A stretch of 64,000 nucleotides of DNA from positions 576,001 through 640,000 of the forward strand of contig CAVVLJ010000016.1 of assembly GCA_963749075.1 (NCBI GenBank). The letters are read 5' to 3'. The notes beneath the pieces were generated by a model. It made no database searches and had not been told where the DNA came from. It worked only from the letters and a program-made list of their open reading frames with translations. This document shows positions 25,557 to 29,994 of this stretch, piece after piece. This DNA is from an uncultured Pseudomonadota bacterium. GTDB taxonomy: Bacteria; Pseudomonadota; Alphaproteobacteria; JACZXZ01. Numbering within the stretch: position 1 is the stretch's first letter; every line of letters starts with the position of its first letter. Made by a program: the position numbers and the translations under genes.

Positions 25557-26960
25557 ATGGCAAGGATCGAGCGCGCCGAGCGCCGCCCGCCCAAGCCCTC
25601 CGAGGGCGACGTCAACCTCTCGCCGCGGCGCCGGCGCTGGGCCGCGCGCAACATCGACGCCGCGACCCGCGCGCTGCTCGAGGCCGACGAGCGCAATTTC
25701 CTCCGCCAGGCGGTCTCCACACCCTGCCTCGACGCCGTGCGCAAGGCGGAGGGCATCTGGATCGAGGACCTGGCGGGCCGGCGCTACATGGACTTCCACG
25801 GCAACAACGTGCATCACATCGGCTACGGCCATCCCCGCCTCAAGGCGGCGATCGCGCGCCAGATGGACGAGCTGCCCTTCGCCCCGCGGCGCTTCACCTG
25901 CGCCCCCGCGGTCGAGCTCGCGGAGAAGCTCGCGGCGTTGGCACCGGGCGGCCTCACGAAGGCGCTCTTCGCACCCGGCGGCTCAGAGGCCGTCGAGATC
26001 GCCATCAAGATCGCGCGCGCCGCCACGGGCCGCTACAAGACCCTCTCGTTCTGGGACTCCTTCCACGGCGCCGGCTTCGCAGCTGCCAGCGTCGGCGGCG
26101 AGGAGCTCTTCCGCGCAAGTGCCATCGGCCCCCTCATGCCGGGCGCCGAGCACGTGCCGCCCTATAGCTGCTACCGCAATCCCTTCGGTCCCGGCCACAC
26201 GAGCAAGGCCCTCCACAACGAGAGCTGCCGCACCGTCTTCCTCAACATGGTGCGCTATGCGCTCGAGAAGGAGGGCGACATCGCGGCGGTGATCGCCGAG
26301 CCCATCCGCGCCGTGCCCTATCTGCCGCCGCCGGGCTTCTGGCAGGGCGTGCGCGAGGCCTGCGACCGCCACGGCACGCTCCTCATCTTCGACGAGATCC
26401 CGACGGGGCTCGGCAAGACCGGCCGCTTCTTCGCTTGCGAGCATGACGGTGTGGCGCCCGACATCCTGGTGCTCGGCAAGGCGCTCGGCGGCGGCATCCT
26501 GCCGCTCGCGGCCGTCCTGGCACGGCCCGAGCTCGACGTGGGCGAGCGCTACGCCTTCGGCCATTACACCCACGAGAAGAACCCGGTGCTCGCCCGCGCA
26601 GCGCTCGAGACCATCGCCATCATCGAGGAGGAGGGCCTGGTCGAGAACGCGGCGCGCGTGGGGGCACTCGCCCTCGAGCGCATGGCGGCGATGATGGACC
26701 GCCATCCCCTCATCGGCGACGTGCGCGGCCGCGGCCTCCTTCTCGGCATCGAGCTCGTCGAGGACCGCGACAGCAAGGCGCCGGCGAGCGACGCGGCCGA
26801 GGCGGTGCTCTACGCCTCGCTCGAGCGCGGCCTGAGCTTCAAGACCACGATGGGGAACGTGCTGACCCTCACCCCGCCGCTCACCATCAGCGCCGCCGAG
26901 ATGGAGAAGGCGCTCGACATCGTCGAGGCGGCGATCGCGGAGGTGGAGGGGGCGCGCTGA
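25557..26960 (+). CDS. pbfA: (R)-1-hydroxy-2-aminoethylphosphonate ammonia-lyase (class III aminotransferase fold)
   Basis: SEGDVN N-terminus, DFHGNNVH, SFWDSFHGA, GHYTHEKNP; directly follows phnW. Confidence 0.8.
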   Translation: MARIERAERRPPKPSEGDVNLSPRRRRWAARNIDAATRALLEADERNFLRQAVSTPCLDAVRKAEGIWIEDLAGRRYMDFHGNNVHHIGYGHPRLKAAIARQMDELPFAPRRFTCAPAVELAEKLAALAPGGLTKALFAPGGSEAVEIAIKIARAATGRYKTLSFWDSFHGAGFAAASVGGEELFRASAIGPLMPGAEHVPPYSCYRNPFGPGHTSKALHNESCRTVFLNMVRYALEKEGDIAAVIAEPIRAVPYLPPPGFWQGVREACDRHGTLLIFDEIPTGLGKTGRFFACEHDGVAPDILVLGKALGGGILPLAAVLARPELDVGERYAFGHYTHEKNPVLARAALETIAIIEEEGLVENAARVGALALERMAAMMDRHPLIGDVRGRGLLLGIELVEDRDSKAPASDAAEAVLYASLERGLSFKTTMGNVLTLTPPLTISAAEMEKALDIVEAAIAEVEGAR

Positions 26961-27116
26961 GGCCAGTGTACGAGGGCGCATATTCACGCCTTGGGCTTGT
27001 TGAGCCGGCCTGCTCAAGGTCCGTTTGACGCCTGACAGCGGCCGGACAGCGAATATCGAGGAAGGTCCAGGTAGTGCCATCGCGCCCGGCCGAAATATCA
27101 GCCGACTTGGAATGCG

Positions 27117-27749
27117 TCACGGGCGGCTTGCTAAGGCCTTCAGCATTGCGGCGCGACCGTCGAGCCACTCGAGTAGATCATCATAGGTCAAGATAGACAA
27201 CTTGGCGCCGCCAACAATTGTGTTTTTGGACCGCCAGTCGAGCCGATGGCGATTGTAGACGGACACCTCGCTACTCCGGCCCACGATAACAAGACCCATT
27301 GACGTGACATGCCTAGCCCCAAAATCGCGTTCCATGACATCGGTACCCGTCTCCCTGTCGATCCGAAACAGCCAGTCGACGACCTGCGAAACACCATGCT
27401 CAACACGTGTCCCCCAGTGAGCGTTTTTGCGCCCCTCCTCTGGCCGAAATAGGCTTGTCGCAGACGCGTCTTCAAATTCGACGAAGAGGAAGGCAGCATC
27501 TTGCAGGTTTCCGGCTATGAGATCGCACACAAAGTCGCCCCAGAGAGGGACCTCCACTTTGACGTGAGTTCCAGTGCTGACCCTATCGACGAGGGTTCCA
27601 AGATACGCGCAAAGTTGCAGATGGGCCTCGAAGAAAGGCAGGAAATGCTTGCGTTCACCGCGAGGATTAGAATTCAGGAATGCACGAAATTCCTCGATTT
27701 CCTTGATCAGAGCTGATGCATCCGGATCAATTTCGGCTACGAGCGGCAT
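27117..27749 (-). CDS. Shedu-type (DUF4263) PD-(D/E)xK nuclease domain protein, no N-terminal sensor
   Basis: 210 aa with GDFVCDL...VEFE, QVVDW, VIVGR and C-terminal ILTYDDLL motifs; lower GC; ATG overlaps the upstream TGA. Confidence 0.75.
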   Translation of the reverse strand: MPLVAEIDPDASALIKEIEEFRAFLNSNPRGERKHFLPFFEAHLQLCAYLGTLVDRVSTGTHVKVEVPLWGDFVCDLIAGNLQDAAFLFVEFEDASATSLFRPEEGRKNAHWGTRVEHGVSQVVDWLFRIDRETGTDVMERDFGARHVTSMGLVIVGRSSEVSVYNRHRLDWRSKNTIVGGAKLSILTYDDLLEWLDGRAAMLKALASRP

Positions 27750-28027
27750 CAGCTGGCAGCGCGCTTTTGCCAATATTGCTCTAGTTGATCAGGCCGGGCT
27801 ACGGCAACAACTATGATCTGATTGCCCGCGATCCGCACCAAGGCGCGGAGACGAGAGGTAATTCCTAATTCCCAAAGCTCCTCGCTCCTGGGAATCCGCC
27901 TGAGATTGGTCCGCATTCCGTGGAAATCCTGCGCAAGCTTCCGCAGCATCTCGTCGGTTCGACTTTCATCCGACTCTGGCAGCGTGGACAGCTGCGCCCT
28001 AATCGCACTATTGATCACAAGTTCCAT
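27749..28027 (-). CDS. Small RelE/ParE-fold-like protein (92 aa)
   Basis: GAGGAAGGAG RBS; strand-helix-helix followed by LWELGITSRLRALVRIAGNQIIVVAV, resembling the RelE beta meander. Confidence 0.55.
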   Translation of the reverse strand: MELVINSAIRAQLSTLPESDESRTDEMLRKLAQDFHGMRTNLRRIPRSEELWELGITSRLRALVRIAGNQIIVVAVARPDQLEQYWQKRAAS

Positions 28028-28454
28028 AGTCTCTCCTTCCTCGCGTTGAGCATGGGCAGAGATGTCAGTTTGCAACCTTCTCAAATGACCTATTCATTTA
28101 TGATACCACGAATTAAATCAACTGCCCCTTGAGCCTTGTTCCGGGGAAGCTATCCTACGGCAACGGAGGGGCAACCACAAAACGCCCCAATGACGTCCTC
28201 GTGCTAACGCCATGGGCGTAGATCAGATCGCGGGCTTCTCCTGATCGAGCGCATCGCATCCAAGACAAGCTCTACTCTGGGCCAATCGCTTCGGTTCCGC
28301 CATGTCGGCGACATGTCCGGTGAGCAAAAAATCCCGCAAACGCCGGTTTGCCATTGAGGGCACCGCGACGGGCCCGAACAAGGTTAGAGGGAACTGTCTT
28401 GCCGTCATTAAGCCAGTGTCGATGGGACTTCGGCGGCGTTTATGAATTCGCGCC

Positions 28455-29994
28455 CTAACCACCCTCCTCGCCGGCGTAGTCCGTGCGCTCGAGGTTGCCG
28501 AAGCGGGTGAGGGCGCCTTCGAACTGCAGGTACACCTTGCCGATCGGCCCGTGGCGCTGCTTGGCGATCGCGACCTCGGCGGTGTTGTGGATTTTCTCGC
28601 CGTGCGCCTGCCAGCGCGCCATGCGGTCGTTGAACTTCTCGTCGCTCTCCTCCTGGCGCTGCTTGGGCTCGGCGCGCTCGTGGTAGTACTCCTCGCGGAA
28701 GATGAACATCACCACGTCCGCGTCCTGCTCGATCGAGCCCGAACTCGCGCAAGTCGGCGAGCTGCGGCCGGCGGTCCTCGCGCTGCTCGACGGCGCGGCT
28801 CAATTGCGAGAGCGCCAGCACCGGCAGATCGAGCTCCTTGGCGAGCGCCTTCAGGCCGCGGGTGATCTCCGAGACCTCCTGCACGCGGTTGTCGCTGCGC
28901 GTCACGCCGCCCGTGTGAAGGAGCTGCAGGTAGTCGACGACGACGAGGCCGAGGCCGTGCTGGCGCTTGAGCCGGCGCGCCCGCGTGCGCAGCTGCGGCA
29001 CGGTCAAGGCCGGCGAGTCGTCGATGAAGAGATGCAGGTGCTGGAGGCGCTGCACCGCCTCGATGAAGCGCGGGAAGTCCTCGCGGCTGACTTCGCCCTG
29101 GCGGATGCGGTCGGAGGGGATCTCGGTCTGCTCGGCGAGGATGCGGTTGGCGAGCTGCTCGGCCGACATCTCGAGCGAGAAAAAGGCGACCTTGGCGCCC
29201 TCGGCGGGCACCATCTTGCCTTCCTCGTCGGCCTCCTCGCGGTAGGCGGCGGCGGCGTTGAAGGCGATGTTGGTGGCGAGCGCCGTCTTCCCCATCGAGG
29301 GCCGGCCCGCGAGGATGACGAGGTCGGAAGCGTGGAGGCCGCCCAGCTTGCGGTCGAGATCCATGAGCCCGGTGGTGACGCCGGTGACGTGGCTCGAGCG
29401 CTTGAACGCGGCCTCGGCGCTGGCGATGGCCTCGGTCATGGCCTCGGCGAGCGGCACGAAGCCGCCCTCGAGTTCGCCCGTCGTGGCGAGCTCGTAGAGG
29501 TTGCGCTCGGCCTCCTCGATCTGCTGCGCCGCGTCCTCCGCGACCGTCATCTCGAAGGCGCGGTTGACGACCTCGGTGCCGAGCTCGATGAGGGCGCGGC
29601 GCAAGTGGAGATCGTGGATGGTGCGGCCGTACTCGCCGGCGTTGATGATGCTGATGGCGCTGGCCTCGAGGCGCGCCAGGTACTTCGATCCGCCCACCTC
29701 GTCGAGCGCGCGGTCCTGCTCGAAGAAGGCCTTGAGCGTGATCGAGTTGGCCAGCTGACCGCGCTCGATGAGGCGGGCGCAGGAGGCGAAGATGCGGCCG
29801 TGCCGCGGGTCGACGAAATGCTCGGGCCGGAGATATTCCGACACCTTCTCGTAGGCTCGGTTGTTGGAGAGCACGGCGCCGAGCAGCGCCATCTCCGCCT
29901 CGGTGTTGTTGGGCGGAGTGCGCAAACCCACCGCCCCCTCGATGCCGACGATGAGCGGCGTGAGGCTGGAACTCTCTTTGGACAGGGTGGCCAT
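28455..29994 (-). CDS. dnaB: Replicative DNA helicase; apparent +1 frameshift at about 28742
   Basis: [26 protein letters not shown]; removing one base restores [16 protein letters not shown] and joins the 28455..28715 C-terminal frame (AKQRHGP). Confidence 0.95.

Follow-up and report, generated by a model that had tools for sequence, protein, structure and literature searches.

A window of 64,000 nucleotides (contig CAVVLJ010000016.1 of the assembly GCA_963749075.1, positions 576,001 to 640,000), originating from an uncultured alphaproteobacterium of the lineage JACZXZ01, carries on its minus strand a cassette of two small genes, hereafter gene A and gene B, with which this study is concerned. 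Gene A (28027..27749, stop codon 27751-27749 included) is an open reading frame (ORF) of 92 amino acids, the product of which is predicted to adopt a fold of the RelE/ParE superfamily, and gene B (27749..27117) encodes a miniature SduA of 210 amino acids that consists of the Shedu PD-(D/E)xK nuclease domain only, in an ExE variant. The TGA of gene A (27751-27749) and the ATG of gene B (27749-27747) have one base in common, forming a TGATG stop/start overlap (27747..27751) indicative of translational coupling. Immediately 5' of the gene A ATG stands GAGGAAGGAGAGACT, with AAGGAG at 28038-28033 and a 5-nt gap to the start, and the Shine-Dalgarno-like element GGAAGGAG (28033..28040, minus strand) accordingly lies 5 nt ahead of the start codon; the ribosome-binding site and the overlap were read directly from the sequence, as they had been in an earlier note on this DNA. 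The content of guanine and cytosine (GC) is 0.53-0.57 across approximately 27050-28400, that is, over the cassette and its leader of about 300 nt, and 0.68-0.73 in the flanks on either side. This contrast, together with the identification of the neighbouring genes, bears out the description of the locus in that note as a low-GC two-gene insert between dnaB and pbfA.

The assignment of gene B to Shedu is supported by both sequence and structure. The Pfam model PF14082 (SduA_C) matched residues 34-193 of 210 with 67.8 bits (cut-off 27), and the PADLOC SduA model PDLC00379, which has 211 positions, fitted the protein from end to end, matching at model positions 10-201 with an E value of 4.9e-45. 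An AlphaFold2 (AF2) model built from an alignment of 36 relatives reached a predicted local distance difference test (pLDDT) value of 94.3 and a predicted template modelling (pTM) score of 0.91, and its best Foldseek matches in the PDB were 8ti9, 8ps5, 8ps4 and 8ti8, with a probability of 1.00 and a template modelling score normalised to the target (TMt) of up to 0.71. Of these, 8ti9 (TMt 0.71) is the nuclease-domain octamer of Bacillus cereus Shedu, 8ps5 and 8ps4 are Escherichia coli SduA, and 8ti8 is full-length B. cereus Shedu. Searching the PDB by sequence with the gene B family profile retrieved 8ps4 weakly, over the C-terminal part (E 0.12), and nothing better that was usable; a better-scoring match to an RNA recognition motif (RRM) was dismissed as compositional. 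Because SduA_C spans residues 34-193 of 210, there is no room for an additional N-terminal domain, as the earlier note had observed. Gene B thus amounts to the nuclease part of Shedu without a sensor: with its 210 amino acids, a domain beginning at residue 34 and no fused sensor, it belongs to the miniature group called 'type II' by Loeff et al. (2023 preprint, section 5) and 'Type 2' by Gu et al. (2023 preprint, section 8), DUF4263 proteins with short extensions and a length of about 210 amino acids, which it also resembles in the solved Shedu nuclease fold and the match to PDLC00379.

The sequence motifs of gene B are D76, E91-F-E93, S121-Q122-V-V-D125-W126, VIVGR (154-158) and TYDDL (188-192), all of which are kept in its relatives. 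Gu et al. (preprint) defined for B. cereus Shedu the motifs I (E), II (D), III (E) and IV (Q), and gene B has all four, lacking the lysine of motif III. In a profile alignment to a canonical SduA of 410 amino acids from another genome of the same class, E91 corresponds to the glutamate of motif III and Q122 to the glutamine of motif IV, while E93 falls on the lysine of the canonical 'EIK', so that the centre is ExE, as the earlier note had observed, and not the ExK found in the type II / Type 2 enzymes used for comparison. Among intact relatives from paired loci, E32 is conserved in 65 of 66 and D76, E91, E93, Q122, D125 and W126 are each conserved in 66 of 66, although the ExE count is to some extent a product of the selection, since EFEDA formed part of one of the two peptide patterns with which loci were retrieved. 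The restriction enzyme BamHI also has ExE, hence catalysis by gene B with this centre remains plausible by analogy. The relatives of gene B are 117-234 amino acids long, and no fused or longer form of the nuclease was detected, none of the relatives exceeding 368 amino acids in a search that we grade as weak evidence. The SduA frame is truncated or split, by sequencing error or decay, at the metagenome and metagenome-assembled genome (MAG) loci L003, L004, L005, L007, L023, L026, L051, L060, L074 and L075.

The pairing of the two genes is obligate. From 92 loci encoding a relative of gene B, 80 were kept as an SduA-anchored set, and in 76 of them the ORF immediately upstream, on the same strand, was of the gene A family; of the other four, three were ended by a contig edge and one had a broken SduA and no detectable partner, which means that the partner was present at 76 of the 77 loci retaining upstream DNA. 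When metagenome loci were anchored on gene A instead, SduA followed directly downstream in all seven cases, truncated or frame-split in four, with one of the seven loci seemingly duplicating a locus on a genome contig. A gene A profile taken through five iterations over 5,442 six-frame ORFs matched 85 ORFs in 84 of 88 sources (30 ORFs had already been found before iteration), and every one of the 85 lay directly upstream of SduA on the same strand. According to the record titles, the SduA-anchored loci come from Alpha- and Gammaproteobacteria, Planctomycetota, Cyanobacteria, Bacteroidota, Terriglobia, Nitrospirota, a Desulfonema and Binataceae, and further from Fimbriimonadaceae, Thermomicrobiales, Verrucomicrobiaceae and a Pseudobdellovibrionaceae MAG.

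The two genes are also tightly linked and have diverged together. The stop/start distance among 84 cassettes was -4 in 22, -1 in 16 and 0 in 6, which makes at least 44 of the 84 overlap-type, the larger distances partly reflecting crude start calls. No conserved third gene was found among these 84 cassettes, the largest cluster of flanking genes covering four loci, all close kin. Nor was there an antitoxin-like ORF in the spacer 28028-28454 of the window, where only arginine-rich frames of 30-79 amino acids occur; on both counts the absence of an evident antitoxin, remarked upon in the earlier note, was confirmed. Pairwise identities of A and of B correlated over 66 loci with a Pearson coefficient of 0.84, a value reached by none of 999 label permutations, and gene A diverged about twice as fast as gene B (median identity 18% vs 34%).

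The A-then-SduA layout was likewise present in all four annotated plasmid or phage records inspected. The plasmid pRi1724 (L101:2154-2501) has an intact relative of gene A upstream of SduA that is missing from the gene table shown; on an Aliarcobacter plasmid the relative is annotated 'hypothetical' and the pair is located near a restriction S subunit; and on an Enterobacter phage-like plasmid (L102:2173-2468) it is split over two frames, with SduA intact downstream. The adjacency has already been annotated in at least one record, that of the Vibrio phage PQ189353.1 (L103:2175-3091), in which the depositor notes read 'RelE-like' and 'Shedu__SduA' for two overlapping genes adjoining 'Gabija__GajB_3'. 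A separate arrangement was seen at L096:269-2049 in a genome of the same class: a miniature SduA of 240 amino acids with the canonical ExK (PF14082, E 2.7e-22) is overlapped by an upstream DUF4917 gene of 356 amino acids with a weak AbiH match, and there is no relative of gene A at that locus. It may be a general feature of miniature Shedu nucleases that their partners are encoded separately and differ in kind.

As for gene A, its AF2 model (pLDDT 89.0, pTM 0.77) found RelE, HigB, YoeB, YafQ, ParE and the RelE domain of Cami1 as top Foldseek matches, with a probability of 1.00 and a score normalised to the query (TMq) of 0.6-0.77 (0.67-0.77 for the best RelE, HigB, YoeB and ParE toxins); the ten matches at E up to 0.001 were RelE, HigB, YafQ and Cami1 chains. 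Judged from this model, gene A has the RelE/ParE fold, and the description of the upstream protein as RelE-like in the earlier note stands. Among the matches were 8phj and 8phb (TMq 0.75-0.77), which we take to be the CARF-RelE protein (Cami1) of type III CRISPR. In Cami1 a RelE domain serves as the effector, joined in one chain to a CARF sensor; gene A is similar in placing a RelE fold in a putative immune system, and differs in being free-standing and paired with a DNA nuclease. Neighbours of gene A in the ESM Atlas carry RelE/ParE toxin labels (score 0.95).

Sequence searches placed gene A at the edge of known families. The protein itself matched no family in Pfam, PADLOC or NCBIfam at E up to 1, and its family profile retrieved nothing useful from the PDB. 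A word-indexed search returned only 11 relatives with 40-62% identity, several of which are named RelE at the source, and in the resulting clade of 12 members weak Pfam matches to Gp49 (nine), ParE_like (six) and ParE_toxin (three) were obtained. When 1.84 billion representatives were searched exhaustively with the profile, no more than 53 proteins were returned at E up to 0.001; of the 51 that were scanned, 42 had no Pfam family, and genuine ParE_like and ParE_toxin proteins appear in the weak tail. One of the proteins, P0147, is 688 amino acids long and matches the gene A profile weakly at residues 15-89 (E 7.4e-4), the remainder being a UvrD-type superfamily 1 (SF1) helicase; it may represent a fusion of a RelE-like module to another DNA enzyme.

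Within the near clade (12 sequences) R61, R65, R78 and Y85 are invariant. Across the whole family of 79 sequences no column is invariant: the two best-conserved polar columns are R61 (69 of 79) and an aspartate at the column of residue 75 (66 of 79), many members have lost the C-terminal Arg/Tyr, and the cyanobacterial ones stop right after the last strand. To judge from the alignment, the absence of any invariant column suggests that gene A serves for binding, as a subunit, and is not a conserved enzyme.

What gene A would bind is suggested by the co-fold of the two proteins, a check that had been proposed along with the original observation. With alignments, A and B gave an interaction score (ipSAE) of 0.88 (0.87-0.91 in three runs), the controls giving 0.02, 0.00 and 0.00; 58 of 80 solved complexes and 2 of 110 mismatched pairs attained the mark used, a calibration that applies only roughly to this co-fold, for which our own alignments were used. 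The runs had at least 92% of contacts in common, with a pLDDT of the partner of at least 82. The modelling thus supports binding of gene A to gene B. The predicted interface comprises residues 52-59, 149-153, 167-175 and the C-terminal helix (approximately 185-210) of gene B, and the N-terminal helix (6-17) and residues 45-53, 61-63 and 74-86 of gene A; six of the 14 best-conserved columns of gene A fall into it, including R61 and the Asp column at residue 75.

From these results, a hypothesis regarding the role of gene A may be formulated. DUF4263 domains without N-terminal domains are toxic in E. coli, and fused N-terminal domains restrain the Shedu nuclease, as reported in the preprints of Gu et al. 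and Loeff et al.; because bare domains are toxic, an inhibitor would be needed for a nuclease such as gene B. Gene A would be synthesised before the nuclease and, owing to the stop/start overlap, coordinately with it, would dock on the surface of gene B formed by the C-terminal helix, together with residues 52-59, 149-153 and 167-175, away from the catalytic residues, and would take over in trans the task of the fused N-terminal domains of type I Shedu, holding an otherwise toxic nuclease domain in check. Infection would perturb gene A, whereupon the nuclease would be released or redirected, acting through a putative metal-binding centre (E32, D76, E91-x-E93 and Q122) that appears intact but altered, with Glu in place of the canonical Lys. 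A detachable regulatory subunit fits best because the near-universal, coupled partner is predicted to bind the nuclease and has no invariant residue, while the centre of the nuclease is frozen. The balance tips slightly in favour of the cassette being a self-contained, horizontally moving two-gene variant of Shedu in which the regulatory subunit, gene A, has a gene of its own and restrains or triggers the nuclease; both the inhibitory or sensing role and a function in phage defence are what we infer. For the broader proposal, that the RelE/ParE toxin fold has been co-opted as a detachable control subunit of miniature Shedu nucleases and that these form a widespread two-component subtype, present in many phyla, on plasmids and in phages, the balance falls just short of even. 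In that control-subunit proposal the fast-evolving and probably labile gene A would act as antitoxin or sensor and leave the part of effector to the nuclease, an allocation of roles in which our confidence is again a little below one half.

KELShedu (Zhang et al., Sci Adv 2025, PMC12577705), described there as bicistronic, with both genes needed for defence, offers by analogy a precedent for a small protein, encoded upstream, that binds to the nuclease. The cassette resembles it in having two cistrons, a small upstream protein (about 100 amino acids in KELShedu) and a DUF4263 nuclease, binding being predicted in the present case. The differences are substantial: KELA has a WYL/SH3-like fold and binds double-stranded DNA, and KELB, of 361 amino acids, possesses an N-terminal domain, whereas here the partner is predicted to have the RelE/ParE fold, is unrelated to KELA, and accompanies a nuclease without such a domain.

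Several observations weigh against a regulatory role of gene A in an anti-phage system. Given the ExE centre, catalysis by gene B is putative only. The co-fold score expresses the confidence of a model and could echo memorised toxin-antitoxin interfaces, and the predicted interface is free of the catalytic residues of gene B, hence inhibition would need allostery or oligomerisation. The context offers little that speaks of defence: the neighbours in the window are dnaB and phosphonate catabolism genes, and a scan of the first 74 of 146 selected nearest large flanking ORFs yielded 30 without a family, about six that are defence- or mobility-like, and housekeeping genes for the rest. The check proposed in the earlier note, whether homologues recur as an adjacent pair in defence islands, thus came out positive for adjacency and not for the islands, and a defence-island interpretation of the context was rejected, being unsupported by the ORFs scanned. 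Furthermore, the family is mostly basic (median isoelectric point 9.15; basic in 52 of 79 members), as would suit a nucleic-acid-binding toxin, and the near clade keeps the C-terminal R78 and Y85 in 12 of 12 sequences. These two residues resemble, as we assume, the catalytic residues of RelE, and the near clade may have ribonuclease activity. The gene order, with the toxin first, would also suit a module of the higBA type.

The main rival explanation builds on the fold, the basic charge and the Arg/Tyr residues of the near clade: gene A would be a RelE/ParE toxin, either an mRNA interferase or a gyrase poison, that is neutralised by SduA through its C-terminal helix, or else the two proteins would be mutually neutralising twin effectors. 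Gene A resembles the RelE, HigB, YoeB, ParE and Gp49 toxins in predicted fold and size and through the weak ParE_like, ParE_toxin and Gp49 matches of its relatives; the labels of its ESM Atlas neighbours and the source names of its relatives also say RelE/ParE toxins, the four residues invariant in the near clade and the basic character of the family suit a toxin, and toxin-antitoxin cassettes are typically inserted singly amid housekeeping genes, as here. The docking sites of antitoxins on RelE/ParE toxins are the N-terminal helix, the sheet and the C-terminal helix, and it is the N-terminal helix, sheet and C-terminal helix of gene A that the predicted interface uses. We nevertheless regard this explanation as unlikely. 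In contrast to RelE/ParE type II toxins, gene A has no antitoxin gene beside it, its constant neighbour being a nuclease, and the family has no conserved residue throughout, the protein of the window being without a Pfam match. No column is invariant in the 79 members, in which the C-terminal Arg/Tyr is often lost, while the catalytic centre of SduA is perfectly conserved, which would be needless for a mere antitoxin, and gene A is the faster-evolving partner.

Less probable again is that gene A acts as a required activator or targeting subunit, the part that KELA has for KELB, and that it would not restrain the nuclease but bring nucleic acid or the ribosome to it. The precedent of KELShedu, in which both genes are needed and the small protein binds both DNA and the nuclease, is in accord with this, as are the basic character of 52 of the 79 members, the Lys/Arg-rich tails of some of them and the predicted binding away from the active site. 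However, KELA, being WYL/SH3-like, is not a relative of gene A, and isolated DUF4263 is active and toxic in two published systems, so that the need for an activator is not obvious.

It is rather improbable that the cassette is solely an addiction module stabilising plasmids or islands, with a nuclease toxin, a labile RelE-fold antitoxin and no role in phage defence. Two small overlapping genes in single copy, patchy among relatives, found on conjugative plasmids and a prophage-like element and flanked mostly by housekeeping genes, would suit such a module. Yet nucleases of the SduA family have, according to the literature, been validated as effectors of defence in several hosts, the Vibrio phage pair stands beside a GajB-like gene and the Aliarcobacter pair near a restriction S subunit, and addiction and defence are not mutually exclusive. 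Finally, the possibility that two unrelated genes are neighbours by chance is close to nil, since it is already contradicted by the conservation of the pair at 76 of 77 SduA-anchored and 7 of 7 gene-A-anchored loci, by the correlated distances and by a co-fold score far above the controls.

In relation to published work, the premise of the earlier note that Shedu systems are single genes with fused N-terminal sensors is outdated, as type II / Type 2 enzymes and KELShedu have been described. Its description of the cassette as a new defence module is accordingly correct for the partner and not for the kind of system: the novelty is the RelE/ParE-fold partner, miniature Shedu and two-component Shedu having already been published. 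In the preprints, miniature enzymes account for 21% of 645 and for 2,286 of 7,687 homologues; in the sections available they are treated as single-gene systems with their control unexplained, whereas here a near-invariable RelE/ParE-fold partner is encoded upstream. Gu et al. leave the control of Type 2 enzymes open ('may be constitutively active'), and the operon contexts given in that text are restriction-modification (RM), BREX, transposon and prophage only. Our literature searches found no paper on a pair of a RelE/ParE-fold protein and Shedu, the final version of Gu et al. (Mol Cell) and the supplements of the preprints (Table S3 and the neighbourhood figures) lying outside their scope; in Vassallo et al., an integron preprint and the Menshen paper the search terms were present in unrelated contexts.

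Approximately a fifth to a third of Shedu homologues have no N-terminal domains, and the structural studies, as far as their accessible text goes, leave the control of these enzymes open. For one cross-phylum clade of miniature SduA, the cassette points to control by a separate RelE/ParE-fold subunit. If true, this would explain how nuclease-only Shedu enzymes spare the host, would constitute a role reversal for the RelE/ParE fold and widen its known uses, and would reduce the question of control to two small genes, with the ExE variant of the active site flagged for biochemistry. Current defence finders would label the nuclease 'Shedu' and overlook the partner.

The origin of the cassette was examined by comparison with relatives, which delimits a strain-specific low-GC stretch from the pbfA stop to the dnaB stop (26961..28462, no strand). 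The source genome has one copy of the cassette, and the stretch was not found in 20 relatives, five of them of the same genus, in which only window positions 26300-26956 and 28463-29298 were matched; synteny with five relatives breaks off at 28463-28473. In the same-genus genomes searched, pbfA and dnaB are on different contigs, and the locus therefore represents a break of synteny and not a simple insertion into a conserved intergenic region. PF14082 was present in 5 of 150 other genomes of the class. Public contigs from the runs X1 and X2 bridge 27843-28568, 26966-27603 and 26866-27016, that is, both junctions, which are consequently not peculiar to this assembly, with the reservation that the two runs are possibly not independent of it. 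No flanking direct repeats convincing as integration scars were found in repeat scans.

Upstream of gene A, on the minus strand, the cassette has a non-coding leader (28028..28335) with a GC content of about 0.53 and only short, implausible ORFs, in which its own promoter presumably resides. A scan for promoters of the sigma-70 type, blind to other types, returned no sites. One palindrome of 9 nt is located in the leader at 28067-28078, and repeat scans gave no other operator-like palindromes. A terminator-like hairpin with a T-run (28336..28351, minus strand), found by pattern scan, lies 3' of dnaB and divides it from the cassette. One flank encodes PhnW, PbfA (NF049939, E 1.6e-201) and a phn-type LysR, and the other DnaB. 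The dnaB gene, on the minus strand, is in two frames with a break at 28741-28742, the first covering residues to about 416 and the second the last 86 amino acids (ORF 28715..28455), and both parts match DnaB models. Compared with five of five aligned relatives the window has one extra base, and base 28742 is absent from two public contigs of run X1; the break probably stems from misassembly or strain variation rather than from loss of the helicase.

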